Positions 17,201 through 53,811 of a stretch of 64,000 nucleotides of DNA are shown here, piece by piece (within the stretch, counting starts at the first letter, position 1; every line of letters begins with the position of its first letter). Where the stretch lies: contig JAFDZW010000001.1 in the NCBI GenBank assembly GCA_018266755.1, positions 85,635 through 149,634 on the forward strand. The letters are read 5' to 3'. A program made the translations under genes and the position numbers. The DNA comes from Bacteroidota bacterium (GTDB taxonomy: Bacteria > Bacteroidota > Ignavibacteria > Palsa-1295). The notes under the pieces are model-generated. The model ran no database searches. It was given only the letters and a program-made list of their open reading frames with translations, and was not told the DNA's origin.

Positions 17201-17276
17201 CGCCGTTCTTCGAGTAGATCGCGAGCGCAGCGTAGTAATTCTTAATGGGCTTATGGGACGGCTTGATGTCGAGCAT
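14208..17276 (-). CDS. Single-polypeptide type IIG/IIL restriction-modification enzyme (MmeI/PglX-like N6-adenine DNA methyltransferase with N-terminal nuclease-like region and C-terminal specificity domain)
   Basis: 1022 aa. SAM motif I ILDPFVGTGNF, catalytic motif IV VIVGNPPYNAGQ, and a C-terminal region with ILHHPEYRTKYAANLRRELPRVPI, the conserved block shared by MmeI-family and BREX PglX proteins. No separate restriction or specificity genes and no other BREX genes nearby. Confidence 0.6.
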   Translation of the reverse strand: MLDIKPSHKPIKNYYAALAIYSKNGVTKETSVRGAFADLLSFYAKKLKWTLTEEYTITLANKNKGSVDGALTDAMTTPMGFWEAKDTQDDLKKEIKAKFEKGYPKSNILFQQPDLAVLYQDGILVDTYDLTQPERLVACLETFFGYKADEQADWEELVAQFKQRIPESAEKLISMIEEEKKTNTRFKEAFKTFAELCRASINPNLADPAIEEMLVQHLLTSRIFSSVFDNAEFLRRNVIAAEIETVIDALTSQSFNRHQFFAPLDHFYVALENRAKSITDWSQKQHFLNTVYEKFFQGFAVKVADTHGIVYTPQPIVDFMVRSVEHILKTEFDRSLSDKNVHILDPFVGTGNFIMRIMREIKRTALPHKYKNELHCNEVMLLPYYIASMNIEHEYYSEVGKYEAFEGICLVDTFELAEPDQGALFSTENTERVKRQKQSPIFVIVGNPPYNAGQVNENDNNKNRKYPVIDKRVSESYSKESRATNKIALSDPYVKAFRFASDRVIANGEGVISFVSNSSFLEDVAFDGMRKQLSEEFDEIFIFNLGGNVRKNPKLSGTTHNVFGIQVGVSINILVRRKSHKKGTTASIYYSRTDEFARKSEKYSALSTAVDVTGIDWQRLEPSAKGNWLTAGMIEGFDSLLAMGTKEGKAAGGSGTIFKIYSSGIKTNRDQWIYNFDEGALLKNVTTLTDEFNRHLIKLANAGKRLELDPTTDYDDRKIAWSEGLKNKLRKGKQLIVDDENVRVVLQRPFERQFVYFEKALIERTYQFTRILPTPESEKENLVISLHGIGMSSPFSALATNILPDVQLTPNSQCFAFYTYNEDGTNRKENITDWALEQFKTKLKTKKEVTKWDIFYYIYGILHHPEYRTKYAANLRRELPRVPISPDFFRISELGKHLADLHVNYESAKEFDLEEEWRKGSVLNLRVEKMKLTKDKASLIYNADLTLRGIPPEVFDYKLGNRSALEWVIDQYQVSTDKRSGITNDPNREDDEGYILRLIKQVITVSLETVKAVKEIAGLRME

Positions 17277-36341: not shown

Positions 36342-37727
36342 TTATCGAACGATCGCAATTTTGAATATGCAACGCGTCTGACTGCCCTCAATCACTCCGT
36401 GATACACTCCGGCCGGTAGGGAAGATACTTCCATTGCGAGCGTATTTTCTCCGACATTCACCGTCGATTGGTCAGACATACGTATTTGACGACCTGTTTC
36501 GTCAAAGAGACGGCACCGGACGACATCACTCGTATGTGCATAGAATTTCACGACGATCACATTTGTCGACGGATTTGGACTGACCTGCACTTCAGTCGCC
36601 GCATCAGTCGCTTCCAGCGACACATCTTGCGTGGTAATCACCGTTGCGTACAAATACACCGGAATACGAGATTTTGCCGCATTGGAAATAACGATGATGG
36701 AGTCTTTATATGTACCGATCAACGGCGGGTCAAAATGAACGGTCAGATCCTGCGCTTGATTTTGTGCAAGTTCTACATGGTCGTTGATGCCGGACACCGT
36801 GAACGGAGGGTGTGGGAAGAGTAAGTTCATGATCAACGTCCGCTGAGTATCCGAGACGTTCTTGATCGTCATGCTCAGTTGGACTTCCGGCGCGCTATGA
36901 ATTGTAAATGTTCCGAAATCGAGCGATGTGGTGCTGAGGTAAATCTTCGGCAGCAATTCGTCCGCAGAATGGACATGGGCACGCAGGATCACAACGATCC
37001 GTCTATTCGCATCGTCGGCATTGCTGTTGATCACGATCGAATCGCGGAAGGTCCCGGTGTCTGTCGGAGCACATTGAACCGTCAGCGACTTCGACGCGCC
37101 ACTATCGAGCAGGAAATTGCCGAGCCCGACGGTTACGAAGAACGGGGCATGTGCATTGACCACATTCCCGTTGAGTTGCAAACCGGTGTTTGTCACGTTC
37201 TTGATCGTCACATTGAGCGGCTTGGACTGCCCGGTGTACACGATGCCATAATCCAGGATGGTGGGCGACACGAGGATGCGTGCAACCGTATCCGGGACAA
37301 ACCCTGTGCCACTGAGGTAGACGATGATCCGCTGGTGGGCGGAGTCCGAGTTCGTCGTGATCACGAGTGAGTCGGAAAACTGTCCGACAAACAGCGGTTT
37401 GAAGGAAAGATAGACCCGCCGCGCGGCGCCCGAATCGAGGCTTGAGACTCCTCCGCCGGAATCCACTGCAAACGGGGAGCCGAGCCCGCCGACCGAATCG
37501 GTGAGCGTGAACGCACCGGTACTGGTGTTGGTGATGACAACCGAAAGTTGCTTGCTGTTGCTGACAGCGACCCTCCCGAAATTAAGCGCTACCGGAGTAA
37601 CGCTGACCTTGGGGATCGAATCGGCTGCCGAAAGCGGGTGCGCAAATCCAATCGAGGCCCCCGCCATGTATAACAATGAGAAAAGTACCAGTCGTGTAGC
37701 GAATCGCATAGTGCGGTGTAGTAGCAT
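36342..37727 (-). CDS. T9SS cargo protein with repeated choice-of-anchor-D/ASH-like Ig domains and C-terminal Por sorting domain
   Basis: Signal peptide MRFATRLVLFSLLYMAGASIGFA. Repeats of LNFGRVAVSNSKQLSVVITNTSTGAFTLT type. C-terminal VQVSPNPSTNVIVVKFYAHTSDVVRCRLFDETGRQIR...AGVYHGVIEGSQTRCIFKIAIVR. Confidence 0.6.
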   Translation of the reverse strand: MLLHRTMRFATRLVLFSLLYMAGASIGFAHPLSAADSIPKVSVTPVALNFGRVAVSNSKQLSVVITNTSTGAFTLTDSVGGLGSPFAVDSGGGVSSLDSGAARRVYLSFKPLFVGQFSDSLVITTNSDSAHQRIIVYLSGTGFVPDTVARILVSPTILDYGIVYTGQSKPLNVTIKNVTNTGLQLNGNVVNAHAPFFVTVGLGNFLLDSGASKSLTVQCAPTDTGTFRDSIVINSNADDANRRIVVILRAHVHSADELLPKIYLSTTSLDFGTFTIHSAPEVQLSMTIKNVSDTQRTLIMNLLFPHPPFTVSGINDHVELAQNQAQDLTVHFDPPLIGTYKDSIIVISNAAKSRIPVYLYATVITTQDVSLEATDAATEVQVSPNPSTNVIVVKFYAHTSDVVRCRLFDETGRQIRMSDQSTVNVGENTLAMEVSSLPAGVYHGVIEGSQTRCIFKIAIVR

Positions 37728-38115
37728 GATACGATTAAAGTTGTGCGGACGATGGATAGTTCTAAAAATTTCTTTGAAAAAAATTCAAAAGCTTGTCACA
37801 CGCCCCTTGGGGTCGGGCGTTAGACCAATAGATAACGACGGAATATCTGGATCTGTAATGCTGAGTGCTCACATTGATCGCAGATAGTCATCCGAACGAT
37901 CAGCCGGGTCATCCGGGCTCGAGGTAGAGGGATGAACGCAGCTATCCGCTTCCGATTTCGTGGCAATGGAAAACGGATAGCAGCGAAACGCTCTCTCTCG
38001 GTGGAAATGCTTGCCGTACGTCTGGGGAGTCACATGGTAAGCGCTACTGCCACGAGCCCGTATGGCCCGCCGCGATCGATACGTCTCAAGGAAGAGCGGC
38101 CTCGTGCCGCTTTTC

Positions 38116-41100
38116 TCATTTTCGGACCACAAGCTGCGAACTGCTCACAATCCCAGCATCGGTCCGCAGTTCAACCGTGTAGATGCCCGGGGCGAGGACG
38201 AGTCCGTCCGGCATAGTCATTTGATTCGGTCCCAGCTGTCGGAGCGCCCCCTCGAAGACCACCTGACCAAGTACGGTAACGATCTTCGCCTGCACCCCTT
38301 TCAGTGGTGAGTCTGAGATAACCCCAAGTGAACCAGACGATGGGTTCGGTACGATCCGAAGCTGCGGAGGAATCCCCCGCAAATAGTCGCGGAGCGTCGG
38401 GTGTCCGCATTCGTTTTGATAATTGAACGTGGCACTGATGGTAAACGCCACAGCGTGACAGCCGGTAAAGATCGAATCGTCCCCATTAAAACGTACATCC
38501 CGCATCGAGAGGGACGTTTGCTCGGCGGTCGTAAGATACACGCCGAATGTGAACGTTGCTAATGCATTGACAGAATCGATGTGCAGCCCGCTGTCATTTT
38601 CAATATGAATGTTGCGGCCATCGCTATCGACGACTGTATTCAACGAGTTGTGGCCTCGGTACTCGAGAAGATCGTTGTTATAGTCGAGTGTGAGATCGAC
38701 AGCCGAAATATTATCGAGTTCGTGAGGATTTGTTTTCAGCGTTGCAGTCCACAATTGTCCTGCGGTGAGCGGCGTAGGGTCGGTCTCAAGCCAGAAATGC
38801 ACTTGTTTTGGGTATCGGATGCCCATGATACAGGGGACCGGCGGAATGGCCGAATCCGAGTTTGTTCGAAAACTCGCCACCGATCGGTTGTCAGCCGGGT
38901 GACCGTTCGTATCCGGCTCGGAAATGATTTCGAGTTCTGTTACACTTCCTGGCAGAAGCGTCAACGGAAGCGGAGTCAGCACTCGGAAGGATGACGATGA
39001 CCAGTCCACACCCGAAATGACGACAGAATCGCAGCTCGGATTTCGAAGGGTGACTCGTTTGACCTGCTGTTCGCACACCCAGGATGTATCGAACGTTAGG
39101 GTGCCGACGGAATCGAGCGTTAGGCGACGCACGGCACGAAGCGAAGCAGCGGTCAGTGGAATCGAGATGGACCCGCCCGAATCGAGCGGGACGGTAATCA
39201 CAGCGAATTTCAAACCGACCGAATTCGGCACGAACGATACAGTAAGCACAATGGAATCTCCGGGAGCGATCGATTTTGTGCCTTGTGTTTGCAACACGAA
39301 GTCAGAATCTCCTGAAAGAGTGATCGCGCCGAGCGAGAGAGAATCGCAACCGGTACTGTAGACCGTGATCGTGCGTGCCTGGCTCTCACACAAATGCAGC
39401 GTATCGAATTGTAGCATCGACGCGGAGAGAGAATCTGCAGAGACTCCCGGGAAGCCGACGGCCATGACAGTGAGGAGAGTGTCGAACGTCACTGTAGCGG
39501 TCGGTTCGTAAAAACTCAAATGCGCCATCGCCTGAGTGGATACCGGTCCTCGAACAGTGGGAGTAAATCGAATTCGTAATCGGATACTGTCACCGCTTTG
39601 TACCTGAACCGGCAGTTGATTCGGGAATACGGTAAACGGCGCTGCCAGCGTAAGCGAATCAACGGAAATTGTTCGGCACGTTGGGTTAGTCAACACGATC
39701 GAGCCATCGGCTACCTCACACAGAGGCGAGCGCAACGTATCGGTTGCGGCAACAATAGCACGCTCATCCGGGAGAACATTTGCAACGATCGGGATCGTGA
39801 ATGTTCCAATACTCGTATATATCACCAATGAGGCCTTTTTTGTCCCAGATTTCAACGGGTGAAAATTGACGGCAATGCCTTTTGGCCCGTCGGTTGATTT
39901 GAGTCGCAACTTGCGAATACCTGAAATACTCACTTCAAGGGAAGTCAGCGAGTCGCTCAGGAGTATCGTGCTGTCGATCATCAGTGGCAGGCACCCAATC
40001 GCAGAGAGGCTGATCGTATCAAGCCCCCCGGCACCGCAGAGCGATTGCGTTGCGAAGCGGAGCGAGTCTTTGTGATCGATTACTAATTCCGTCGGATGTG
40101 CAGTAACGACAATGACGAGTGGGAAAGTAGTGTCGACCCCAGTCCAGTCGGATGCGCAATAGTGCAGATGAATTGTCGCCTGGTACGTCCCCGGCGTTGT
40201 CGGAACGATGGAGAGATACGATGTGTCCGGGGCACCGGTATGGATGATCTTATTCGGCGTGATTATCGTTTTCGTGGAGCCTCCTGCAAAATTATCGAGC
40301 GTGAGACTTTGGATACGCATGTAGTCACAGGCCGAGAAGAACGTCTGTATCCGTAGGAGCGCCGAATCGCATGCATCGATCACGAGGGTGTCGCCCACAT
40401 TCGAGTAAATACGAGCATCGCTCAGCAAGGGGGTGACGACGCTTCGGTCGGTGAATTTCCAGATCGTATCGCTGTCATACCAGGTGTCGATTGCATAACA
40501 CACGCTTCCGCGCGTGGTTACCCCGCAGATCGGGACGTCATCGCGTTGGTCGGTCCCTGCGCTCGGTCCGCCGATGGGCGTCCAACTTGCGCCGAGATCG
40601 GTCGAACGCAGCACTCCGCCGGGGTATGTATTGCCTTTCATCTGCGTATACGCGATACATGCATCGCCCCAGAGGCCGTCGTCAAGTCCGAATCGCTGTG
40701 CCGGTCCGAGGACTGTGTTCCACGTTGCGCCGCCATCGGTCGAGCGCTGAATCCTCGATGCCCCGGGTCGCGGAAGCGTGTCGTCTCCGCCGGCTCTTAT
40801 GTAAATGAGTGAAAACGGGAATGCATAGCCGTAGTCTGCTTCGATCGCATTTTGCGAGACATTCCAGGATAGCCCTCCGTCGGTAGAGTACAGACCGGGC
40901 ACGAGTCCCCGGCTCGAACTACCACCCCAGATCGCGATGCTCTTATCAAGATTTCCGGTAATGCATTCTCCGGCAGTCAGCACCGATCTCGACCAGTTCT
41001 GAGCATGGTCGGCACTGATGCGCCCGCGACAATCGAAGAAGATGTCGTTGAGAATATATAATGGCTGGTCACGATAGACCGTAGGGTTCCAGAGCGTGCG

Positions 41101-41469
41101 CCAGGTCGTTCCGCTGTCCGTGCTTTCGTAGGTGCCGTAGAGGAAAATATTCGCCGGGGTATGGAAATAGCATTGTCCCATTCCGAGCATGGGAGCCGGG
41201 GTGCGGATCTGCTTCCAGTTCTTGCCGCCGTCGGTGGTGCGGAATACCTGATTGTTGGCAAGGGTAACGAATCCGTACTGTTCGTTGAGAAATGCGGCAC
41301 CGACAGGGGTGCTGGAATTCAGTGAGGTAATGAACGGTTGCCACGCCGGTTGCGCTGAGGCGATCGACGTGCTCAGGATAACGAACACAGATACGACGAG
41401 CGAACGTATCTTCATTCTGTGTGGGATACTGGGTACTTGTGCGGTTTCACACAACCTCGGGGGAGTCAA
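38116..41469 (-). CDS. Large T9SS cargo protein: N-terminal BNR/sortilin-type beta-propeller + choice-of-anchor-D Ig repeats + C-terminal Por sorting domain
   Basis: Signal peptide MKIRSLVVSVFVILSTSIASAQ. At least five BNR motifs (TDGGKNWKQI, STDSGTTWRTL, STDGGLSWNV, STDGGATWNTV, STDLGASWTP). C-terminal LRIVPNPSSGSLGV...GIYTVELRTDAGIVSSSQLVVRK. Confidence 0.6.
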   Translation of the reverse strand: MTPPRLCETAQVPSIPHRMKIRSLVVSVFVILSTSIASAQPAWQPFITSLNSSTPVGAAFLNEQYGFVTLANNQVFRTTDGGKNWKQIRTPAPMLGMGQCYFHTPANIFLYGTYESTDSGTTWRTLWNPTVYRDQPLYILNDIFFDCRGRISADHAQNWSRSVLTAGECITGNLDKSIAIWGGSSSRGLVPGLYSTDGGLSWNVSQNAIEADYGYAFPFSLIYIRAGGDDTLPRPGASRIQRSTDGGATWNTVLGPAQRFGLDDGLWGDACIAYTQMKGNTYPGGVLRSTDLGASWTPIGGPSAGTDQRDDVPICGVTTRGSVCYAIDTWYDSDTIWKFTDRSVVTPLLSDARIYSNVGDTLVIDACDSALLRIQTFFSACDYMRIQSLTLDNFAGGSTKTIITPNKIIHTGAPDTSYLSIVPTTPGTYQATIHLHYCASDWTGVDTTFPLVIVVTAHPTELVIDHKDSLRFATQSLCGAGGLDTISLSAIGCLPLMIDSTILLSDSLTSLEVSISGIRKLRLKSTDGPKGIAVNFHPLKSGTKKASLVIYTSIGTFTIPIVANVLPDERAIVAATDTLRSPLCEVADGSIVLTNPTCRTISVDSLTLAAPFTVFPNQLPVQVQSGDSIRLRIRFTPTVRGPVSTQAMAHLSFYEPTATVTFDTLLTVMAVGFPGVSADSLSASMLQFDTLHLCESQARTITVYSTGCDSLSLGAITLSGDSDFVLQTQGTKSIAPGDSIVLTVSFVPNSVGLKFAVITVPLDSGGSISIPLTAASLRAVRRLTLDSVGTLTFDTSWVCEQQVKRVTLRNPSCDSVVISGVDWSSSSFRVLTPLPLTLLPGSVTELEIISEPDTNGHPADNRSVASFRTNSDSAIPPVPCIMGIRYPKQVHFWLETDPTPLTAGQLWTATLKTNPHELDNISAVDLTLDYNNDLLEYRGHNSLNTVVDSDGRNIHIENDSGLHIDSVNALATFTFGVYLTTAEQTSLSMRDVRFNGDDSIFTGCHAVAFTISATFNYQNECGHPTLRDYLRGIPPQLRIVPNPSSGSLGVISDSPLKGVQAKIVTVLGQVVFEGALRQLGPNQMTMPDGLVLAPGIYTVELRTDAGIVSSSQLVVRK

Positions 41470-41567: not shown

Positions 41568-42011
41568 ATGGAGCTGAAAATCAAACGTTTATACCCCGAC
41601 AGAGATACAGATATTCCCTTGCCGTCATACGCGACGGAACATTCGAGCGGCCTCGACCTGCGTGCATCCGAAGACGTTGAGCTTACGAGCGGCGCATGGA
41701 CACTGGTGCCGACCGGCCTTGCGATCGAAATACCCGAAGGGTTCGAAGGACAAGTTCGCCCGCGTTCGGGGCTGGCAGCCAAGCATGGTGTCACGTGCCT
41801 GAATACTCCCGGCACGATCGACGCCGATTACCGCGGAGAGGTACGAGTGATCCTGATCAATCTCGGCCCTGATTCCGTTCGCTTTTCTCGGGGCGAGCGC
41901 ATCGCGCAGCTTATCATATCGCGCTATGAACGCGTTGAAGTCGTCACTGCGGATACTCTGACCGATTCGGAGCGCGGGAGCGGGGGCTTCGGCCACACAG
42001 GGGTACACTAA
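41568..42011 (+). CDS. dut: dUTP diphosphatase
   Basis: Complete set of dUTPase motifs ([44 protein letters not shown]). Confidence 0.8.
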
Positions 42012-42075: not shown

Positions 42076-43086
42076 ATGTCAAATAAAGTTATTACGATCG
42101 AGCGTCACATTATCGAAGAAGAGCGCTCGTCGAACGGTGCGACCGGCGATTTTTCCGGATTGTTGCGCGACCTGACCCTTGCGATCAAGATCATTCACCG
42201 CGAGGTGATCCGAGCTGGGCTTGTCGATATTCTTGGCGCGACCGGGCAGGAGAATGTTCAAGGCGAGATCGTGCAGAAGCTTGACGAATATGCAAACGAC
42301 GTGATCTTCCGTGCAATGGATCACGGCGGACATCTCTGTGCAATGGCAAGCGAAGAGAATGAGGACTTGCTGAAGATACCGGCCGAATATCCGAAAGGGA
42401 AATATGTATTGTTGTTCGACCCGCTCGACGGTTCGTCGAACATCGACGCAAACGTATCGATCGGGACCATCTTCTCGATCCATCGCCGGGTGACCGAGTC
42501 GGGCGACGGGACCGAAGCCGACGCACTGCAACAAGGCTATAAGCAGGTTGCGGCGGGATATACGATTTATGGCCCGTCCACGATGCTGGTCTACACAGCG
42601 GGGCGGGGAGTGTTCGGGTTTACGCTCGACCCATCGGTCGGCGAGTTCTTACTTTCCCATCCGAACATCCGCATCCCCGAGCACAAAGGAATTTACTCCG
42701 TGAACGAGGGCAACTACAACAAATGGTCGCCCGAGATGCGACGCTACATCGACTGGTGCAAACAAGACGATCCTGAGAGGAATAAGAAGGCGTACAGTCT
42801 GCGCTATATCGGCTCGATGGTCGCCGATGTGCATCGTACGCTTCTCTATGGTGGTGTATTCCTCTACCCTGCGGATGTCAAGAGCAAAAAAGGCAAGCTA
42901 CGCCTGCTCTACGAGGCAAACCCGATGTCGTTCATCGTCGAGCAAGCTGGCGGCCGTGCAACCGATGGAATGGGAAAGCGACTACTTGAGATCGAACCGA
43001 ACGAATTGCACCAGCGGACGCCGCTTGTCGTCGGTAGTCCCAAGAATGTCGAAGAGGTCGAGTCATTCCTCCAAGGTACACGCTGA
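42076..43086 (+). CDS. fbp: Fructose-1,6-bisphosphatase class I
   Basis: 336 aa. N-terminal TLTRFIIEE-like IERHIIEEE, metal-binding DPLDGSSNID, and the C-terminal GG...YP...KLRLLYEANPM block. Confidence 0.85.
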   Translation: MSNKVITIERHIIEEERSSNGATGDFSGLLRDLTLAIKIIHREVIRAGLVDILGATGQENVQGEIVQKLDEYANDVIFRAMDHGGHLCAMASEENEDLLKIPAEYPKGKYVLLFDPLDGSSNIDANVSIGTIFSIHRRVTESGDGTEADALQQGYKQVAAGYTIYGPSTMLVYTAGRGVFGFTLDPSVGEFLLSHPNIRIPEHKGIYSVNEGNYNKWSPEMRRYIDWCKQDDPERNKKAYSLRYIGSMVADVHRTLLYGGVFLYPADVKSKKGKLRLLYEANPMSFIVEQAGGRATDGMGKRLLEIEPNELHQRTPLVVGSPKNVEEVESFLQGTR

Positions 43087-43098
43087 AACCGAGAACCT

Positions 43099-44838
43099 GT
43101 GAATAGTCTCCGTTCCAGCCATATCCATCCGCTGACCTCTCCGCTGCCGATCGTGCTCGGGGTGACGGGTCATCGCGATCTGCGTACACAGGATATTCCG
43201 CAGCTCAAGCATAGCGTCCAGACCATCTTCCGTGAGCTGCTGGCAAACTACCCCTCAACTCCGCTGACGATGCTCTCATCACTTGCCGAGGGAGCGGATC
43301 GACTCGTCGCCGATGTGGCGCTCGAGATGGGTATCGATCTCGTTTGTCCGTTGCCGTTGCCCCCGGAATTATATCGAAGCGATTTTGTGACCGAAGAATC
43401 GCGTGCAGAGTTCGACCGGTTGCTTCGCGCAGCGAAGAGCTGGTTCACCCTGCCGCTCGTCGAAGGAGTCACCAATGAGGATATTAAGACGCATGGTCGC
43501 CCGCGTGATCTGCAATATGCACAGGTCGGTGCATATCACGCACAGCATAGTCAGATACTGATCGCGCTCTGGGACGGGCTCGTGCTCGACAGCGTCGGTG
43601 GGACGGGGAAGGTCGTACACTACAAGCTCGACGGAGTGCCGAAGATATTCGGGAAGACTCAAAGTCCGCTCGATCCAGTCGAGACCGGTCCGGTTTATCA
43701 TGTGCTTACCCCGCGCGAGTCGAACGCTGACATCAAGGATGCGCCATTCACGGTAAAAAAGTATTTCCCTCGTGGTTATGGTGAAGATCAGGAAGCGCGG
43801 ACTGCATTCGACCGCATTTTCCAGCAAATAGATCGTTTCAATTCCGATACCGAGCGATATACGCTTCATCTGCAGCAACACAAACCGCAAAGCGAAGCGT
43901 GGCTGCTGGGTGAGCAATCGAAAGAAGAACTATCCGAAGAACTGCGTTCGATCGTCGATCACTACAGTACTGCCGATACACTAGCAACCTACTTCCAACG
44001 ATACACCCGCAGAGCGTTCGTGGGGATATTCTCGTTCGTGTTCTGTGCAGCAGCTTTCTTCGATCTCTACGCGCACCTCTTTCACGACGAACCGCTGGTA
44101 TTGGCAGGATACCTGTGTGCATTGATGCTTGCGTTTATTTGGTACGTGTTCGCAAAACGGCGTCACTATCAGACGAAGTATCTCGATTATCGCGCGCTTG
44201 CCGAAGGATTGCGCGTGCAGTTCTTCTGGAGAGTTGCCGGGCTGAGGCAGACCGCCGGCGACTACTACATTCGAAAGCAAAAGAGCGAGCTCGACTGGAT
44301 CCGTTTTGCCATGCGGACGGCAGCAATCCCGCTCAACGCCGATTCCGATGCGATGGACCCGGGCGATACCGCAAAACTGCGAACGCGACTCGAGCGAGTT
44401 TTGCATTCGTGGGTCGAGGATCAGGCGAAATACTATCCAAAGGCGCTAAAGCGTGATCATCACCGGCTTCACCGTTTGGAGCGGACGATCAACATATTGT
44501 TCTACGTAGGCGTCATACTTGCGGTTATTCAACTCTTGCTTGAGATACCGCACGAACTCAAAGATTATGTAGTGGTCGCAACCGGGCTGGCCCCCATTAC
44601 TGCTGCATTACTCGGTGGCTATATCGAACGCAATGCACTGATCGGACATATTAAACAGTACGAACGGATGGGGGTGATGTTCGTTCAGGCAAAAGAGTAT
44701 CTGGTTGCATTACTGAAGGATCGCCGCTATGCCGAAGCATCGGATTTTATCTTCGAACTCGGTACCGAAGCGCTTGGTGAAAGCGGCGACTGGATGCTTT
44801 TGCATCGTGAGCGTCCGCTTGAAGTGCCGAAGGGATGA
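43099..44838 (+). CDS. SLOG-domain (LOG/DprA/YpsA-like Rossmann nucleotide-sensor) fused to a multi-pass SLATT-like transmembrane effector region
   Basis: N-terminal ~200 aa: IVLGVTGHRDL (strand-1 plus Gly loop), LSSLAEGADRLVADVALEMGIDLVCPLPLP and ILIALWDG...GGTGKVV reproduce the SLOG/LOG core layout. Residues ~300-579 contain two pairs of transmembrane helices (FVGIFSFVFCAAAFFDLYAHLF / LVLAGYLCALMLAFIWYVFA, and INILFYVGVILAVIQLLLEI / VVVATGLAPITAALLGGYIE), each followed by long helices, as in SLATT 2-TM modules. No signal peptide. Confidence 0.5.
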   Translation: MNSLRSSHIHPLTSPLPIVLGVTGHRDLRTQDIPQLKHSVQTIFRELLANYPSTPLTMLSSLAEGADRLVADVALEMGIDLVCPLPLPPELYRSDFVTEESRAEFDRLLRAAKSWFTLPLVEGVTNEDIKTHGRPRDLQYAQVGAYHAQHSQILIALWDGLVLDSVGGTGKVVHYKLDGVPKIFGKTQSPLDPVETGPVYHVLTPRESNADIKDAPFTVKKYFPRGYGEDQEARTAFDRIFQQIDRFNSDTERYTLHLQQHKPQSEAWLLGEQSKEELSEELRSIVDHYSTADTLATYFQRYTRRAFVGIFSFVFCAAAFFDLYAHLFHDEPLVLAGYLCALMLAFIWYVFAKRRHYQTKYLDYRALAEGLRVQFFWRVAGLRQTAGDYYIRKQKSELDWIRFAMRTAAIPLNADSDAMDPGDTAKLRTRLERVLHSWVEDQAKYYPKALKRDHHRLHRLERTINILFYVGVILAVIQLLLEIPHELKDYVVVATGLAPITAALLGGYIERNALIGHIKQYERMGVMFVQAKEYLVALLKDRRYAEASDFIFELGTEALGESGDWMLLHRERPLEVPKG

Positions 44839-44845
44839 TCCGTAG

Positions 44846-45958
44846 TTAACGGCCGGTGCAACGCCGGTATCGGTCCATCGCTGCATCATAGAGCGCACGA
44901 ACGGATTCATGGTGTTTTACTTGGGCTTTAACCCGTTCTTCGGCGCTTGCAATCCGAGGCTTGAGTTTGTCCGTGTCATAGACGTCCGCTCGTGCTTCGG
45001 CCTCGAGAAGCTCCTTGCGCAAGCGTTCGAGCTGCGCGTAATCCTGCCAGTAGGATTCTTCGATCCGCATCAACGAATCGGAGCGATTAGTGACCGAGAG
45101 CAACAGGCGCAAACATTCTTCTTGCGATGGTAATGCAATGAGCGTATTCGGCTCTGCGAATCGCTCCGGCATATTAATCGGCGAACCGTCAGGATCTTCC
45201 GCCTGCACACTCCACACGAAGTCACCACCTTGCGACGGCAGCCGAAACTCCGCCGGCCACATCAGTTGTGTAACATTCGTAACCACCCGTTCGAAAAACG
45301 AGCGGTTGTTAAGGATGGCCTGTTTTGGATGCTGGTTCGGCAATAACTCGACGACTTTTAGGCGATAGACTACGGCCGACTGTGGGGTAGGAACGATCGG
45401 TGTCCAGGAGAAAAGAGTGCTTGTCTCCAGACCCGACGTGATGGTCGCTGCATTGGCTGGTTGCAACAACTGAGGCAGTGAGTATCGAGTCAGAAAGAAC
45501 GATCGGCATTCGAGCGGCGAGATCGTCTCGCGGGTATCTGCAGCCACGAGATGGACGCAGAGCTCATAGTTTCCTTCGGGAAGCATCCCGGTACGAAGTG
45601 TCGTCGTGCTTGCGTCGCCTTTGAACGTCAGGGCATTGGACGGGAATAGATCACCGCCATAGTATGTGCTTTGTCCCGGTGTGATCGACAGGACAGGCAT
45701 CGATTCGGTTCGTGTCGAAGCAACTTCGTTTCCATTGAGTGTAAGCGATGCGACGATACGTGCATCGACGTTTTTATTGGTTGTATTTGTGATAAGAAGC
45801 GAGGCAATCTCGCGACGACTTTGCCAGTCGGTTAACCGTAACGAGGGATGCGGAGAAATACTCAGGTGTATCTGCATTCCTTGCCCGTGGATATCGGCTG
45901 TCTTGACAAGCAAAGCCAAAAAGAATACACTAATGATGAAGAGCGGTGACCTCGCCAT
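44846..45958 (-). CDS. Secreted hypothetical protein with C-terminal coiled-coil; last gene of the ECF-CHAT operon
   Basis: Internal start MARSPLFIISVFFLALLVKTADIHGQG (ATG at 45958, 2-3 nt from the CHAT gene stop). Beta-rich body. C-terminal 70 aa are heptad-like (LERLRKELLEAEARADVYDTDKLKPRIASAEERVKAQVKHHESV). Confidence 0.45.
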   Translation of the reverse strand: MARSPLFIISVFFLALLVKTADIHGQGMQIHLSISPHPSLRLTDWQSRREIASLLITNTTNKNVDARIVASLTLNGNEVASTRTESMPVLSITPGQSTYYGGDLFPSNALTFKGDASTTTLRTGMLPEGNYELCVHLVAADTRETISPLECRSFFLTRYSLPQLLQPANAATITSGLETSTLFSWTPIVPTPQSAVVYRLKVVELLPNQHPKQAILNNRSFFERVVTNVTQLMWPAEFRLPSQGGDFVWSVQAEDPDGSPINMPERFAEPNTLIALPSQEECLRLLLSVTNRSDSLMRIEESYWQDYAQLERLRKELLEAEARADVYDTDKLKPRIASAEERVKAQVKHHESVRALYDAAMDRYRRCTGR

Positions 45959-46063
45959 GTTCTTTAAACGATCTGTGAATGGATGCCGTGACACCTCAGG
46001 GATCGCCGCCGCGGATCCAATGTGTGATCGAGAAGCCATCATATCGGTCGTTCGTATCATGGT

Positions 46064-48580
46064 TCAATATCCGATCAGTTCGAACCCTGCCCAATACAGA
46101 GGTTCGTCGTTGCCCATTCGTTTGTGCACGACAGAGCGCATCTTCAACTGCGCGGCACGCAGCGCCGCAGGTTTCGAGTCGCCTTGCAGCAATCGTTTAT
46201 AGAAAATCGTCATCAACTCTGCCGTTTCGCGATCCGGGATTCGCCAGAGGCTCATCAGAACGTTGCGTGCACCGGCTGTGCGAAGGGCCCGAGGAAACCC
46301 GAATACACCTTCGCCCGGTTCGATCGTCCCTCTGCCACTCTCACAGGCAGAGAGTGTGACGAGATCGGTCCCGTACAGATCCAAATACATCGCTTCAAGA
46401 CCGCTGACAACGCCATCGTTCGAGGGGTCATCGCTGCCGCGTCGAAGTGTTTTGTTTGCGCCGCTGAGGTAGAGTGCACATTCGAGCAGATCGTCGGTGA
46501 TCGTATTGCCTTCGGAGCTATCCGGTCGAAATGTCGCATGTGTTGCGATATGAACGATCGAGCGATCACGGAGCCGGTCGAGATTCTGTTCACTCGCGTC
46601 GGAACCAAGAAATGATTGCACATCCCAATGAGCACCCCGAAAAATCGCGCCGATGTTCGATGCCTCTGATTTCGTTGCATTGAGCTCTTGCAGCATGCCT
46701 TTCTCCCGTGCGGTCGGCAGCGCTGATACGACAGAGGTACGGACATTTCCATACGCGGGGTCGGCAAAGATCGTGATGGACTGTGTCCGTTGTGACGGAA
46801 CATCACGGGCTACGTCGCCAGTATTTGTAAGCGTGGCGATCTCATAGCGATCGATGACTTGTGTGCGATCGTCGATGGGTAGCATCGGAAGTGACAACTG
46901 CGAATAGATCCCATCGGGTGAGATGTACACTGTGCCGACATGCGGTAATAATTCGGCGATCGGAGCCCATATGAGTTTGCTTACAATCTTCAGCGCCTCG
47001 CGATGTTTGGTGCCAGGCACAAGTGCCAGATAATATGCACGGAGCATAGCGGGGTCTTCTAACGTCGTTGCATCTCCGATCACGGTGCTCTGCGGAGCAA
47101 TACTATCGTGAGGCGAGACCACGAATGCGGCGTAGGTAGCGGTGTCGGTCTGCCGTTCGCCGTCGAAGTATGGAAACCGTGCGATCTCGATTGCAACGGA
47201 CTCCGGTTGCAATCGGTCGCGGACGTTGTTCCACGAGACGCGCGGGAATTGAAGCGCCTTGCCGGCTCGTGCGGAGCGTCTGACAAGTTGTTTCTGAAGT
47301 CGCTCGATCGCGACATCGAGACTGTCGCTGCCGAAGAGCGGTTTTGCAATGAGCAGACTGTCGCCACTGCGTAAGGCCGAGCGCCGTGCAGCAAGGATGG
47401 CGATGTGTGCTATGAGTGAACTTGCAGTCGTGTCTCCCGAACGAGAGAGCGATTCCCGATTGGCGGCAAGGCTGGTGACCGCCGCTGCTTTCTCGAACAA
47501 CAACCAATCGTACGCAACCGCCGATCCTGCCGGATAGATGGAACCGGTGCGAACCGCAGTACTGAACACGCGACCGCTCGTGCGATATATTTCACGGAGA
47601 AATTCTAATCGCTCCCGCTCGCTCGTGTAGCTGAAGTTGACCTGCGCCGCGTCCTCATAGATCGAGAGTGCGCGGTTGTACGCTGCAAATGCGGCATTGG
47701 GACGATTCTGTAACTCGCAAATGCTGCCGTCGACCAGTTGCGAGAGTGCACGTGTTCCGTAGGATCGGTCGCCGGTTCGCATGAGATCGTTCTCGCAGGC
47801 GCGGATATCCGGTTCTGCGGAATCGGGGTCAGATGCGATCGCTCTGGTTCGAGCTCGTGCAAGACGAATGGAGGCTCGGAGTTCGAGTCGAGGTTCGTTT
47901 GCAGCGGAGAGGAGTTCTAATGCCGTCGAATAGATCCGCTCCGCATTGTGATACCGTCCTTTCTCGAATGCAATATCTCCGGCAAACCGTTGGATGCGAA
48001 TTGATTCGGTGCTACCGTTCCCAAATCCCGACATGATTGTCGCCGAAAGGCCGCTGGCAAGGTTTTCGGCTTCTTGTGCATTTCCGCTGCGAAGCGCATA
48101 CTCGGCCGAAGCAAGCGTGGCAAGGGCTGTGAACTTGTTGTCGGCGCCAAGTTCGACACGATATGCACTCACTTGTTCATTCGTTGCTCGAACAGCGTCG
48201 CGGTAGCGTCCTTGTTCCGAATATAGCCGGGCGAGTCTGCTCCACGCAGAGGCGACAATAGGATGGTGTGCGGAATAGAGGCGTGTGTTCGCGGCGATTG
48301 CACGTTCCAGCGCTTCTTCGGCTTCGCCGTATTCTGCTTGCTCGAGCGTGAACACCCCAAGCATGTACTCGCAGTATGCAGCAACGGAGTCGTTGGGTTT
48401 GGATGAATGGTGATCCGCTAAGATCGAGCGTACGTAGTATTCACCATTGTGAAGGTCGGCAGCATACAGAAGGGAGTCGCAATGACGTGTTACAACGGCA
48501 AGCGCGGGTGGTCCTTGTGCCTGAGTCGGAAGGGGAGTCGAAACGAAGAACAGAAATAATAGGAGTACTCGATCGATCAC
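46064..48580 (-). CDS. Secreted TPR-repeat CHAT-domain (caspase-like) protease
   Basis: Signal peptide MIDRVLLLFLFFVSTPLPTQAQG. About 350 aa of TPR-like helical repeats. C-terminal CHAT domain with the His/Cys dyad context IVHIATHATF...LVTLSACESG and the terminal YWAGFELIGY. Confidence 0.7.
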   Translation of the reverse strand: MIDRVLLLFLFFVSTPLPTQAQGPPALAVVTRHCDSLLYAADLHNGEYYVRSILADHHSSKPNDSVAAYCEYMLGVFTLEQAEYGEAEEALERAIAANTRLYSAHHPIVASAWSRLARLYSEQGRYRDAVRATNEQVSAYRVELGADNKFTALATLASAEYALRSGNAQEAENLASGLSATIMSGFGNGSTESIRIQRFAGDIAFEKGRYHNAERIYSTALELLSAANEPRLELRASIRLARARTRAIASDPDSAEPDIRACENDLMRTGDRSYGTRALSQLVDGSICELQNRPNAAFAAYNRALSIYEDAAQVNFSYTSERERLEFLREIYRTSGRVFSTAVRTGSIYPAGSAVAYDWLLFEKAAAVTSLAANRESLSRSGDTTASSLIAHIAILAARRSALRSGDSLLIAKPLFGSDSLDVAIERLQKQLVRRSARAGKALQFPRVSWNNVRDRLQPESVAIEIARFPYFDGERQTDTATYAAFVVSPHDSIAPQSTVIGDATTLEDPAMLRAYYLALVPGTKHREALKIVSKLIWAPIAELLPHVGTVYISPDGIYSQLSLPMLPIDDRTQVIDRYEIATLTNTGDVARDVPSQRTQSITIFADPAYGNVRTSVVSALPTAREKGMLQELNATKSEASNIGAIFRGAHWDVQSFLGSDASEQNLDRLRDRSIVHIATHATFRPDSSEGNTITDDLLECALYLSGANKTLRRGSDDPSNDGVVSGLEAMYLDLYGTDLVTLSACESGRGTIEPGEGVFGFPRALRTAGARNVLMSLWRIPDRETAELMTIFYKRLLQGDSKPAALRAAQLKMRSVVHKRMGNDEPLYWAGFELIGY

Positions 48581-49419
48581 GGAACAACGATGCTTTGCGC
48601 ATCGGAGGACGGACCCTTGGCACGTCCCTTTGTAGCGGTTACACGAACACTGACGGAATGTCCGCTAGGGAGTGAGCCGATCCGGGCATACGCATGCGCA
48701 ACCTGGGCAACAGGATGAAAATGTTGATCATTCTCGGTCTTGATCTCGACGATATAGCTAAGCGCACCCTCGACCGGTTGCCACGTCAGACGGATCGAAC
48801 GCGGAGTTCCGGGCTCGACGGTAAGCTCGTTCGGCCGTTGGATCTGACCGGTGAGCGAACGCCGCAAGCGGGCGAGATCTTCCGGAGAGTTCGACCGGGA
48901 CGATCGAGCCTGATCGTCTGCACCGCGAAATTGGGTTGACGATGGCGTACTCGTCGTTGTCGATTGATCGGTCGGTGTCGAAACGGGGGCAGGGGGGGCA
49001 GTGATACTCTGATCGGAAACCGGTGTCGTCAGCGGAGTGGTAGCGGACCACGGGCGCCATGCGAGTAAGGCAACGACAACCACGGCTGTTGCTCCGACGA
49101 GGCGGTATGTGGTCTGCGATGCAAAGATCGAGGTAAGTCGGGCAAAAAAGCCGCTCTCGCTCTTTATGACGACGGAAGCTGTTGGAGCAACGGCAAACCG
49201 CTGGTATGCCATTGCAATAGCCGAATCGCTTGGGTGGCCGACATCGGCGAGATATCCGTAGAGGATTGAGAGCGAATGAGATTGCTCTCGAAACGAATCG
49301 CCGAGTTCGGGGTATGCGCGCTCATAAGAGGTCAGCACCTCGGCTGCATTTGACCCTTCAAGCATAGCGGCAACGAAGGAGTCACTAAAACGATTGATAA
49401 TGTGCTCAGACTCTCTCAT
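48577..49419 (-). CDS. Single-pass membrane protein with periplasmic fibronectin-III domain; positional anti-sigma factor candidate
   Basis: Cytoplasmic ~115 aa, TM LVGATAVVVVALLAW, Pro/Thr-rich linker, FN3-like LTVEPGTPRSIRLTWQPVEGALSYIVEI...VSVRVTA. ATGA overlap with the sigma gene stop and 4-nt overlap with the CHAT gene. No classical zinc anti-sigma motif was seen. Confidence 0.45.
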   Translation of the reverse strand: MRESEHIINRFSDSFVAAMLEGSNAAEVLTSYERAYPELGDSFREQSHSLSILYGYLADVGHPSDSAIAMAYQRFAVAPTASVVIKSESGFFARLTSIFASQTTYRLVGATAVVVVALLAWRPWSATTPLTTPVSDQSITAPPAPVSTPTDQSTTTSTPSSTQFRGADDQARSSRSNSPEDLARLRRSLTGQIQRPNELTVEPGTPRSIRLTWQPVEGALSYIVEIKTENDQHFHPVAQVAHAYARIGSLPSGHSVSVRVTATKGRAKGPSSDAQSIVVP

Positions 49420-50213
49420 ATAAATAACCCCAGTGATGCAATGACGAAGAAGATCCCTTTGCCGACGAGTGCAGAGTAAAATGCTTCCAGTGCTTCGTCC
49501 TCTGAACTGACTTGGTCGGCCGTGACATCCTCCCGAAGATATAAGCGTCTGAGCACGGCATTTTGTGACGCATCCAGTGTGGAAAGCACGCTACGGTGCT
49601 TGGAGATCAGTTTTTGGCGCAGCATCATAACGCCTCGCTTATGGATCTGGCGGGCATTTGCAACGCTAATTCCATTGTTTTCAGCGATTTCCTCGTACTC
49701 GAGCCCAGAAACGCGCTCTTCGATCACTTTCCGGTACTTTTCATCGAGCTCGGAGAGGATTCGGACAGTCTCCATCCCGCCGAGTATAATGTCGGAAATA
49801 TCAGCCTGTTTGTCTGCCGGTTGGAGCCGAGCTTCCCAATTTGCGGCGGCGTTCTCTTCGGTGGGTGAGTCATCGAAGCTGATAAATACGCGATCCTTGC
49901 GATTGCGGCGGCGGTTGTGGTCCAGCGCAGTATGCTCGGCCACCACATGGACGAACCCAAAGAGTCTGCCTTGTTCAATTACACGTTCTGCCTTCTCTGG
50001 ATTTCGGAATGTCGCCAGAAGCTTTTCCAGCGTCTCCATCATGATATCGTTCAGTTCGTCTTCTCCAAACGATGTGCGCCAGTGTTTTTTGAGCGACGCG
50101 TAGACAAATTTATAGAGCAGCGAAAACAGTCGTTCCTCGCAACGGCGATCACCCTGCGCAGTGCCCCGAACAAGTGGTTCTACGTTCGGCAGATCGTTTA
50201 CGGCAACGGACAT
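49416..50213 (-). CDS. ECF-type RNA polymerase sigma-70 factor with ~60-aa C-terminal extension
   Basis: Region 2 (LYKFVYASLKKHWRTSFGEDELNDIMMETLEKL) and region 4 helix-turn-helix (YEEIAENNGISVANARQIHKRGVMMLRQKL), then an extra C-terminal segment ending in the hydrophobic GIFFVIASLGLFI. Confidence 0.65.
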   Translation of the reverse strand: MSVAVNDLPNVEPLVRGTAQGDRRCEERLFSLLYKFVYASLKKHWRTSFGEDELNDIMMETLEKLLATFRNPEKAERVIEQGRLFGFVHVVAEHTALDHNRRRNRKDRVFISFDDSPTEENAAANWEARLQPADKQADISDIILGGMETVRILSELDEKYRKVIEERVSGLEYEEIAENNGISVANARQIHKRGVMMLRQKLISKHRSVLSTLDASQNAVLRRLYLREDVTADQVSSEDEALEAFYSALVGKGIFFVIASLGLFI

Positions 50214-51681: not shown

Positions 51682-52134
51682 ATGGAGACCAACTGTATCT
51701 TCTGTCGCATTATAGCTGGCCAGGAGCAATCATGGAAGGTATATGAGGACGAAGCGCATGTCGGGTTTCTCACACCGTATCCCAATACTCCCGGGTTCAC
51801 AGTGCTCATTACCAAGGAGCATCATGAGAGTAACGTGCTGCATCTCGATGAAGCGCGATACCTGTCAATGCTCCGTTCCGCACGGATACTCGCCCACCGG
51901 CTCGAATCGAAACTCGGCGCACGACGTATTGCTTTGGTGATCGAAGGAATGGGCGTCGACCATGCACATATCAAGCTCATCCCAATGCATGGCATTCCCG
52001 ACGGGCCCTGGCAGCCGATCCATTCGAACGAGCCGACGATGCACGAAACGTACCAAGGATTTATCGCAACGCACGACGGGCCTCGCATGAGCGACGAGCG
52101 CCTCGATGCAATTCGCCGTCAAATAGCCGAATAG
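51682..52134 (+). CDS. HIT-family (histidine triad) nucleotide hydrolase
   Basis: N-terminal CIFCRII, central ...FLTPYPNTPGFTVLITKEH..., HIT motif HAHIKLIP. Confidence 0.75.
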   Translation: METNCIFCRIIAGQEQSWKVYEDEAHVGFLTPYPNTPGFTVLITKEHHESNVLHLDEARYLSMLRSARILAHRLESKLGARRIALVIEGMGVDHAHIKLIPMHGIPDGPWQPIHSNEPTMHETYQGFIATHDGPRMSDERLDAIRRQIAE

Positions 52135-52175
52135 GTGCCGCGAACATCATCTCTATCGGCGGTGTTTAAGACACG

Positions 52176-52871
52176 ATGCTCGAGATTGCCCCGCAGTCGC
52201 TGACGATCGCCGAACGGCAACGCCCAGATATCCTTCGCGTGAACGAGATATTCTACTCGATTCAGGGTGAAGGTTCTCGTGCGGGCGAACGCTGTGTATT
52301 CGTGCGGATGACCGGCTGCGGACTCCGGTGTAGTTACTGCGACACGGAGTATGCCTTCTATGAAGGGACCGATCGCTCGATCGAAGATATTCTGTCGGAG
52401 ATTGCAGTCCATGACTGTTCGCTTGTCGAATTGACCGGCGGTGAACCGCTGGAACAAGAAGGAGTATATACGCTCATCGACCAGTTGCTCATTCGAGGCT
52501 ATGAGTTGATGATCGAGACAGGCGGTCATATCGATATCAGCCGTGTCGATATGCGTGTCAAGCGAATCGTCGATCTGAAGACGCCATCGTCGGGGATGTC
52601 GAAACGAAATCTGCTCTCGAACATCGACGTTCTTGGGAAGCACGACGAGGTGAAGTTTGTCATCGGCGATCGCGCCGATTACGAGTGGAGCCGGCAGATG
52701 ATCCGCACCTACTCCCTTCACGAGCGTGTGGGCACGATCCTGGTGTCTGCGGTTGCCGGCGTGCAATCGCTCGAAGAACTCGCGAAGTGCATACTCGAAG
52801 ATTCGCTTCCGGTAACACTGCAGGTGCAGTTGCATAAGCTCATTTGGCCCCATGTCGAGCGTGGCGTCTGA
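52176..52871 (+). CDS. queE: 7-carboxy-7-deazaguanine synthase (radical SAM)
   Basis: FYSIQGEGSRAGERCVFVRMTGCGLRCSYCDTEY carries the CxxxCxxC cluster motif in the QueE context. Followed by queF, queD and queC. Confidence 0.75.
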   Translation: MLEIAPQSLTIAERQRPDILRVNEIFYSIQGEGSRAGERCVFVRMTGCGLRCSYCDTEYAFYEGTDRSIEDILSEIAVHDCSLVELTGGEPLEQEGVYTLIDQLLIRGYELMIETGGHIDISRVDMRVKRIVDLKTPSSGMSKRNLLSNIDVLGKHDEVKFVIGDRADYEWSRQMIRTYSLHERVGTILVSAVAGVQSLEELAKCILEDSLPVTLQVQLHKLIWPHVERGV

Positions 52872-52903
52872 GCGAACGGTTACGATTTTTTTATTCCGAA
52901 CGA

Positions 52904-53335
52904 ATGGCACGATCCAATAAAGTAGAACTCGTTGTATTCAAGAACCCGCACCCTGAGCGCGACTATACGATCACGCATGTCAACCCGGAATTTACATCGG
53001 TGTGCCCGGTGACTGGCTTGCCGGATTTCGGGGAGATCTCGATCGAGTATGTTGCCGACGAACTCTGTGTAGAATTGAAGGCACTGAAATATTACTTTCT
53101 CTCATTTCGTAACCGCGGTATCTTCTACGAAGCAGTGATTAATGAGATTCTCGATGATCTGGTCACGGCAATGAAGCCTCGTTCGATCACCGTTCGCGGT
53201 GCATTCTCGACGCGCGGCGGCTTGCACTCGGTTGTGGAAGTCGGCTATATCAAAGGGCTCGATCGCGAACCGAAGCCGTCGCCGCGAGTGAAGATCGTCC
53301 GCCACACAAAACCCGTTGCAAAACCTGTCGCCTGA
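52904..53335 (+). CDS. queF: NADPH-dependent 7-cyano-7-deazaguanine reductase (type I)
   Basis: Start MARSNKVELVVF. Catalytic-Cys segment TSVCPVTGLPDFGEISIEY and the QueF motif ELKALKYYFLSFRN. Confidence 0.7.
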   Translation: MARSNKVELVVFKNPHPERDYTITHVNPEFTSVCPVTGLPDFGEISIEYVADELCVELKALKYYFLSFRNRGIFYEAVINEILDDLVTAMKPRSITVRGAFSTRGGLHSVVEVGYIKGLDREPKPSPRVKIVRHTKPVAKPVA

Positions 53336-53811
53336 TGCTCACGAAGATCTCAAAGACGTTCCGTTGGGAAATGGCACACCGACTGCCGTTTCACGAGGGC
53401 GGCTGTCGCAATATTCACGGACATAGTTACGCGATGACCATCGAGATCGGCGGAGAGCCCGATGCGAATGGGATGGTTCTCGACTACTTCGATCTGAGTT
53501 CGATCTGCGAACCGTTGGTCAAAGAGATCGATCACGCGTTCTTATGCGATCGCTCCGATGCCGAGGTGAGAGACTTTCTTGTGAAGACAGGATACAAGGC
53601 GGTGTTTGTGGACTTCCCGACAACGGCGGAGAACATTGCATCATGGTTCTTCAGTCGGTTGTCCGATCATTTTATGATCTTTAAGCATATCCGTACACTT
53701 CGGGTCGTGGTGAGCGAAACGGAACGCACGACTGCCGAAGTACACGGTGAGATCCGAATCCCGCCGCTCGACCCGAGAATGCTCGAACATCAATCGCACA
53801 TGCTCGAATGA
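53335..53811 (+). CDS. queD: 6-carboxy-5,6,7,8-tetrahydropterin synthase
   Basis: PTPS-fold motifs [24 protein letters not shown]. 1-nt overlap with the queF stop and 4-nt overlap with queC. Confidence 0.75.

Follow-up and report, generated by a model that had tools for sequence, protein, structure and literature searches.

A SLOG-SLATT membrane protein encoded behind dut and fbp is an orphan member of a bacterial family linked to TIR and DUF4062 genes

The SLOG-SLATT gene and its locus

The DNA analysed here (hereafter the window) is a stretch of 64,000 nucleotides (nt) from a Bacteroidota bacterium (assembly GCA_018266755.1, contig JAFDZW010000001.1, positions 85,635 to 149,634 of the forward strand), and encodes at 43099..44838, on the plus strand, a membrane protein comprising an N-terminal SLOG domain and two C-terminal SLATT modules, whose relatives often neighbour TIR or DUF4062 genes. 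The list of open reading frames (ORFs) gives a complete gene for 579 amino acids (aa) with a GTG start and the stop codon included, exactly as delimited in an earlier reading of the same DNA (the first-pass annotation). A deposited NCBI protein from a Bacteroidetes/Kapabacteria-type metagenome-assembled genome (MAG) is 100% identical to it, likewise 579 aa long and named "hypothetical protein". The GC content of the gene (0.53–0.56) is the same as that of its flanks and uniform over the region. The gene is not a chance feature, since more than 4,000 full-length homologues were found.

Directly upstream on the same strand lie dut (dUTPase, 41568..42011) and fbp (FBPase, 42076..43086), both assigned with Pfam. 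The fbp stop codon is found 12 nt before the SLOG-SLATT gene, no promoter-like or terminator-like site was detected in these 12 nt by a consensus scan, and the gene is probably co-transcribed with dut and fbp. On the other side follows a convergent minus-strand operon (44846..50213) encoding a 404-aa protein without a Pfam match (44846..46060), a TPR-CHAT protease (46064..48580), a fn3-containing, possibly anti-sigma protein (48577..49419), and an extracytoplasmic function (ECF) sigma factor (49416..50213). The position between fbp and an ECF-CHAT operon, among housekeeping genes, had been described correctly in the first-pass annotation. This convergent operon is kept beside the SLOG-SLATT gene in 4–6 Kapabacteria loci, and its combination of protease, anti-sigma protein and ECF sigma factor is reminiscent of CalpL/CalpT/CalpS-type modules. 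We do not claim a functional tie between the two, because CHAT/caspase genes were not enriched at ±1 of family members in the neighbour census across the family.

The N-terminal SLOG domain and the linker

The N-terminus of the protein has a SLOG-type Rossmannoid α/β fold (43144..43773, plus strand; residues ~16–225) of YpsA/YAcAr-like type, which bears out the SLOG layout proposed at first pass. The motifs on which that proposal was based, GVTGHRDL (residues 21–28), SLAEGADR...CPLP (61–86), ALWDG (156–160) and GGTG (167–170), are all present and largely invariant in the 45 homologues that served as the sample for domain scanning and conservation. The signatures of the domain are a Gly loop (G21–D27), G65-x-D67, W158 and G167-G168-T169, and the invariant positions of the alignment include G24, H25, D32, G65, D67, R68, W158, G168 and T169 as well as the further polar residues R26, D27, D95, R136 and Y140. 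The YpsA clade of SLOG domains has been defined by a Gly-rich loop and a GxD/E signature (PMC6459960). Judged from the sequence, the window protein appears to carry both: G21-V-T-G24-H-R-D27 comes after the strand at residues 18–24 and G65-A-D67 after the strand at 56–59, and both are invariant. When the homologues were scanned singly, YAcAr (PF10686) was matched in 12 of the 45 (best E 2.4e-6) and DprA in three, and one homologue bears a precomputed PF10686 assignment.

The SLOG domain is followed by a helical linker (43774..43962, plus strand; residues ~226–288) without a family match, which forms two helices (230–253 and 255–270) in the AlphaFold2 model of the full protein (pLDDT 88.6, pTM 0.88). 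Neither the protein nor the family profile retrieved anything relevant from searches of PDB sequences.

The wealth of invariant polar residues in the SLOG domain (H25, R26, D27, D32, D67, R68, D95, R136 and Y140) would also fit a membrane-anchored enzyme, in which a catalytic SLOG domain processes or degrades a nucleotide or NAD-derived (nicotinamide adenine dinucleotide-derived) signal in the manner of the LOG N-glycosidases and the SLATT modules serve to anchor or regulate it. SLOG clades do contain enzymes such as LOG, and viral SLOG proteins have been proposed to degrade signals of the cyclic ADP-ribose (cADPR) type (PMC9503650). We nevertheless consider such an enzyme quite improbable.

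The C-terminal SLATT modules

Hydropathy and the model agree on four hydrophobic helices arranged as two hairpins with short acidic loops, K/R-rich flanks and long helices after each; the hairpins and the long helices had been described before. The two-helix transmembrane (TM) hairpins with flanking helices that SLATT requires are hence present, and the acidic loops and K/R-rich flanks place the SLOG domain in the cytoplasm. The first module (43963..44358, plus strand; residues ~289–420) is SLATT_3/DUF4231-like, with TM1 at ~305–326 and TM2 at ~333–353, and carries the conserved juxtamembrane motif YLDYRALAEGLRVQFFW at residues 361–377. The second (44368..44835, plus strand; residues ~424–579) is SLATT_1-like, with TM3 at ~462–481 and TM4 at ~490–508, and ends in a conserved motif with the invariant columns G555-E557..E561..D564-W565..H569-R570-x-R572-P-x-E.

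Module 1 was matched by the Pfam models DUF4231 (residues 298–374, E 5e-3, 17.7 bits against a cut-off of 24.7) and SLATT_3 (289–372) and by the NCBIfam model SLATT_3 (E 3.1e-5, 24.1 bits against a cut-off of 45). Module 2 was matched by Pfam SLATT_1 (439–491, E 1.8e-3, 18.7 bits against a cut-off of 26.3) and also by NCBIfam SLATT_1, with SLATT_1 matches covering ~437–505 overall. Among the homologues, scanned singly, SLATT_1 was found in 34 of 45 (best E 7.9e-7), SLATT_3 in 25 and DUF4231 in 18, and at family level the best E values for the three models were 6e-8 to 6e-6. Structural comparison of the C-terminal half matched generic helical bundles only. Two SLATT modules in one chain are thereby supported, as had been claimed, whereas the further claim of a duplicated module is not shown: hhalign brought the hairpins into register, but the alignment was weak (E 0.0085, probability 4.7%) and without significance, and an internal duplication is not claimed.

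The gene might instead encode an ordinary transporter or be a decaying relic. Sporadic Pfam matches to Cation_efflux and FUSC_2 (one of the 45 homologues each) would favour a transporter; no consistent transporter family emerged. A relic is at odds with an intact frame, more than 50 invariant columns, a confident model and thousands of full-length homologues. Given these conservation data and the want of consistent family matches, both alternatives were rejected as extremely improbable.

Family size and phyletic spread

When 1.84 billion representatives were searched with the family profile, 3,407 proteins passed a threshold of E ≤ 1e-30 and 10,819 one of E ≤ 1e-3, amounting to a family of about 3,400 clusters at 50% identity with lengths nearly always between 560 and 640 aa. 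A scan of species-representative genomes located the family in at least 577 genomes, from groups including Kapabacteria, Ignavibacteriota, Acidobacteriota, Chloroflexota, Planctomycetota, Verrucomicrobiota, Nitrospirota, Desulfobacterota, Proteobacteria, Spirochaetia and Firmicutes, and the 50-plus invariant alignment columns hold across phyla. No match was found in phages and only distant ones in plasmids; a full-length homologue (hhalign 99.6%) on a Caballeronia plasmid is named "DUF4231 domain-containing protein" by NCBI and has a TIR gene next downstream. Members are labelled "hypothetical protein" almost everywhere. Pfam, NCBIfam and PADLOC contain no dedicated model for the YpsA-like SLOG + SLATT_3 + SLATT_1 subfamily, and PADLOC gave no match to the window protein.

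Partner genes of family members

The neighbourhoods of 80 family loci were analysed, with crude gene calls used for BLAST clustering. This clustering revealed no neighbour conserved family-wide, and an association with TIR proteins was invisible to it because these are diverse in architecture. In a domain census of the 106 immediate neighbours outside the Kapabacteria subclade of the window, TIR_2 was the domain seen most often (15 proteins), and next came TPRs and a K+-channel/TrkA_N/RyR protein. A locally built TIR hidden Markov model (HMM) then detected 28 TIR genes in 24 of the 80 loci, and these were strongly concentrated next to the family gene: 15 of 140 genes at ±1 and 8 of 132 at ±2 encoded TIR proteins, compared to 5 of 779 farther away (±1 against farther: odds ratio 18.6, p = 2e-9, Fisher's test). 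The spacing is operon-like, with the TIR gene 16–100 nt upstream on the same strand. In a neighbour-joining tree, the TIR-linked members fell in the deep, multi-phylum part, and the Ignavibacteriota/Kapabacteria clade including the window gene was essentially TIR-less.

Within this clade, a different gene recurs. DUF4062 genes were found in 6 of the 80 loci, and a DUF4062-NACHT-TPR (STAND) gene in five loci of the window's Ignavibacteriota/Kapabacteria clade: it lies 4–10 nt behind a second SLOG-SLATT paralogue in two Kapabacteria MAGs (L035, 9998–14845; L041, 9986–14830) and within 2–6 genes in three Ignavibacteriota loci (L018, L020 and L025). DUF4062 has been described as a TIR-like NADase that makes ADP-ribose (ADPR) and is often encoded beside NACHT (preprint, bioRxiv 10.64898/2026.05.01.722283). 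Our calling it TIR-like rests on that preprint; a sequence link between DUF4062 and TIR was not found by hhalign (probability 1.7%) or by lenient Pfam scans. On this basis a TIR or TIR-like NAD+-cleaving gene accompanies the family gene in 30 of the 80 loci, and the reported activity suggests DUF4062 as an alternative signal generator in the clade of the window. Some Kapabacteria genomes hold two paralogues (L005 and L035 in assembly JBBQWV; L009 and L041 in assembly JBAWZA), one fbp-linked like the window copy and the other linked to DUF4062-STAND. Because such pairs exist, the orphan copy could share a signal generator encoded elsewhere in its genome.

The family is thus tied to nucleotide-signal machinery by the fusion to SLOG and by the non-random adjacency of TIR and DUF4062 genes. 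The first-pass annotation, which had asked for homologue neighbourhoods to be searched for partners, had suggested either a self-contained effector or an orphan receptor for a messenger made in trans, and has to be corrected on self-containment.

Three further arrangements were seen among the loci. A Blastocatellia MAG (L026, 6829–11692) carries tandem family members on either side of a 306-aa TIR gene, all on one strand. In seven loci from at least four phyla (L059, 8181–11812; L065, 8130–11905; L072, 8184–11809; also L055, L056, L067 and L042), a gene with K+-channel (Ion_trans_2), TrkA_N and RyR domains adjoins the SLOG-SLATT gene, in three of them overlapping its start by 4 nt, and in six of the seven a TIR gene lies near the pair; the resulting TIR + K-channel-RyR + SLOG-SLATT module resembles a type X (ion channel) Thoeris system joined to a SLOG-SLATT effector. 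On an Agrobacterium pTi plasmid (L082, NZ_CP039902.1, 59954–61795), TIR, caspase-family and 149-aa SLOG-only genes stand in a row, flanked by several CHAT genes and a second TIR gene. This SLOG-only protein is 31% identical to the N-terminal domain of the window protein, and the arrangement resembles a type IV-like Thoeris locus in which SLOG is a separate protein.

Proposed function of the SLOG-SLATT protein

On balance we favour, with some caution, the view that the protein is a membrane effector of Thoeris type, gated by an NAD-derived ligand, orphaned in the window and signalled in trans. YpsA-clade SLOG domains have been linked to the sensing of cADPR variants, and SLATT has been predicted to be an effector of membrane permeability regulated by ADPR derivatives (PMC9503650; PMC7159879). 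Furthermore, TIR + SLATT has been validated as type VII Thoeris, with canonical cADPR as its signal, and type X combines TIR with an ion channel, with type I being SIR2-SLOG (bioRxiv 10.64898/2025.12.03.692087). Architecture, fold, topology, conservation of the sensor residues and the non-random adjacency of TIR/DUF4062 genes follow from the present data; the ligand, the gating, the pore and signalling in trans are inferred. The protein would sit in the inner membrane, with the cytoplasmic YpsA-like SLOG domain acting as a nucleotide-ligand sensor connected by the helical linker to the two SLATT two-helix modules. By analogy to Thoeris, the SLOG pocket would bind an NAD+-derived molecule (ADPR or cyclic/conjugated ADPR) produced by a TIR or TIR-like enzyme, and the signal would be relayed via the invariant juxtamembrane helices. 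The SLATT hairpins, probably oligomerised, may then permeabilise or depolarise the membrane, and the damage would lead to growth arrest or cell death. Because no TIR or DUF4062 gene lies within the 64 kb, the copy in the window would most likely answer a trans-acting signal whose source is encoded at another place in the genome.

The conservation pattern is consistent with such a role. The SLOG invariants and the juxtamembrane and C-terminal motifs are kept to the same degree in the two groups compared, 27 members from the TIR-less clade and 21 TIR-linked ones, which argues for an unchanged biochemical function. In addition, among syntenic relatives with a TIR gene the closest (L003) encodes a TIR-TPR protein four genes upstream, belonging to the same cluster as TIR-TPR proteins that adjoin family members in Spirochaetia and Chlorobiaceae.

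Several observations weigh against a Thoeris-type effector. At the level of domain assignment, the query itself gave no SLOG profile match in Pfam even at E ≤ 10 and none in NCBIfam, and its SLATT matches, though positionally coherent, all fall under the curated Pfam and NCBIfam cut-offs. TIR and DUF4062 HMMs found no partner among all ORFs of at least 70 aa in the window, and PADLOC identified no TIR, CD-NTase or cyclase gene in the same 64 kb, in line with the first-pass statement that no cyclase or nucleotidyltransferase is encoded nearby. The neighbourhood is a housekeeping one and neither a defence island nor a mobile element, and the stable synteny of the gene together with its moderate evolutionary rate (46–74% identity to syntenic orthologues, compared to 36–49% for the CHAT protein) is unusual for defence genes. 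Lastly, two "SLOG and 4TM" systems, from Streptomyces and Ca. Nitrospira nitrosa, were tested in E. coli and gave no defence (bioRxiv 10.64898/2025.12.03.692087); these are likened to the present family by architecture only.

The window copy in its neighbourhood

The sole clear defence gene of the window encodes a Type ISP restriction-modification enzyme (Type_ISP_C, ISP_coupler, N6_Mtase; 14211..17276, minus strand; PADLOC REase_MTase_IIG, E 2.5e-232), located ~26 kb from the SLOG-SLATT gene. The AAA-type PADLOC matches are attributable to FtsH, and a marginal DUF4062-like match at 52844..53335 was dismissed as QueF. Upstream of dut, the minus strand (36342..41469) encodes a pair of large secreted proteins in which ASH/HYDIN-type Ig-like domains occur together with BNR repeats, one of them with a type IX secretion system (T9SS) C-terminal sorting domain. 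In L003, the corresponding region holds the TIR-TPR gene instead. On the far side, a plus-strand queuosine-precursor cluster (51682..54488) encodes a HIT-domain protein, a radical-SAM QueE-like protein, QueF, PTPS/QueD and QueC. Genes for LptD, TilS and FtsH come next, and the neighbourhood also includes a glycosyltransferase and surface proteins with T9SS tails.

The first-pass annotation had named universal adjacency to fbp as a sign of a metabolic gene. Such linkage was found in the Kapabacteria subclade only and not across the family: within the subclade, fbp directly precedes the gene (−1) in 10 loci, and in 8 loci dut occupies position −2. In the syntenic loci, identity to orthologues was 80–91% for FBPase, 63–80% for dUTPase, 60–79% for the ECF sigma factor and 40–55% for the 404-aa protein; with the values for the SLOG-SLATT and CHAT proteins given above, the SLOG-SLATT gene is preserved to the degree of a core gene of moderate conservation. 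The window copy is seen as vertically transmitted within Kapabacteria, where it closes the dut-fbp cluster.

This setting raises the question of whether the Kapabacteria protein is a domesticated physiological sensor-channel, expressed with dut and fbp, responding to an endogenous nucleotide ligand (ADPR, NAD(H) or a related molecule) without an immune role, and functionally comparable to the ADPR-gated channel TRPM2. The 12-nt distance to fbp with no signals in between, the gene order kept in ~10 loci down to 46% identity, an evolutionary rate near that of dut, and housekeeping surroundings with no partner gene in 64 kb all point in this direction, as do the physiological role of YpsA, the closest fold, in cell division and oxidative stress (PMC6459960), and a weak full-length Foldseek similarity to TRPM2/TRPM8. 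However, sensor and juxtamembrane residues identical to those of TIR-linked members give no sign of a changed ligand, L003 retains its TIR-TPR gene, close relatives may share their gene order simply by descent, and the TRPM matches have probabilities below 0.5. We therefore regard a domesticated channel as unlikely. A bolder version, in which a Thoeris-type effector was uncoupled from TIR/DUF4062 in Kapabacteria and fixed as the third gene of the core dut-fbp operon to become a channel gated by an endogenous NAD+/ADPR-type ligand, seems to us distinctly unlikely. If true, it would link nucleotide or redox status to membrane potential, would give bacteria a functional counterpart of TRPM2, and would exemplify the domestication of an immune effector for a physiological role.

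Comparison with known systems

SLOG and SLATT were reportedly defined computationally as conflict-system domains by Burroughs et al. in 2015. The Pfam models SLATT_1, SLATT_3, DUF4231 and YAcAr cover the same domain types and the same predicted logic as the present protein, a nucleotide sensor coupled to a two-TM pore-forming effector, and the Pfam name of SLATT itself records the association with SLOG. This kind of protein is therefore already known, and the first-pass remark that the architecture matched no named defence family needs amending: "SLOG and 4TM" already appears among the putative effectors in the Thoeris survey of 2025, with the same stated architecture beside TIR as our TIR-linked members (bioRxiv 10.64898/2025.12.03.692087). 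The published "SLOG and 4TM" TIR proteins showed no close similarity to those of the family loci, and the published systems have a TIR gene whereas the window copy does not. With corrections on self-containment and novelty, the first-pass interpretation is otherwise supported.

Among characterized Thoeris effectors, the type VII protein ThsH is likewise a SLATT membrane effector for a TIR signal and is thought to oligomerise and breach the membrane. ThsH is annotated as SLATT without SLOG, its ligand being proposed to bind between SLATT protomers, whereas the present protein combines SLOG with two SLATT modules. In type I ThsA (SIR2-SLOG) and in type III Thoeris (SLOG + NucS), SLOG is the receptor for a TIR-made ADPR derivative; the type III SLOG is DprA-type, as here, and not of the STALD type. 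Both are soluble with an NADase or nuclease output, in contrast to the membrane module found here. Bacillus subtilis YpsA (PDB 2NX2) is a soluble, stand-alone protein of 178 aa that affects FtsZ and cell division, and shares only 16–17% identity with the window protein, with no sequence-level match. Membrane effectors of CBASS offered no counterpart, as there was no PADLOC effector match and no CD-NTase in the window or among the top neighbour families. TRPM2 is comparable in its working, since a SLOG-type cytoplasmic domain binds ADPR and controls a membrane channel, but its membrane part is unrelated (six TM helices, tetrameric), which makes the likeness an analogy and not a membership.

The window locus is not filed as a Thoeris system, because it has no TIR gene and does not lie in a defence island; it is an orphan member of the SLOG-SLATT effector family, and the gain for the window as such is chiefly an improved annotation. 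A modest advance over the accessible literature lies in the size and phyletic spread of the YpsA-like SLOG + SLATT_3 + SLATT_1 family, the quantified TIR/DUF4062 linkage, the recurrent TIR + K-channel-RyR + effector module, and the TIR-less, vertically inherited copy in the Kapabacteria dut-fbp cluster. This last copy, with its sensor site intact, makes a tractable case for asking if abortive-infection effectors can be driven by NAD-derived signals that are endogenous or act in trans. The linkage also suggests TIR-TPR + effector and TIR + K-channel-RyR + effector as natural cognate pairs, and speaks for extending the Thoeris-like repertoire by a SLOG-plus-double-SLATT class of effectors.

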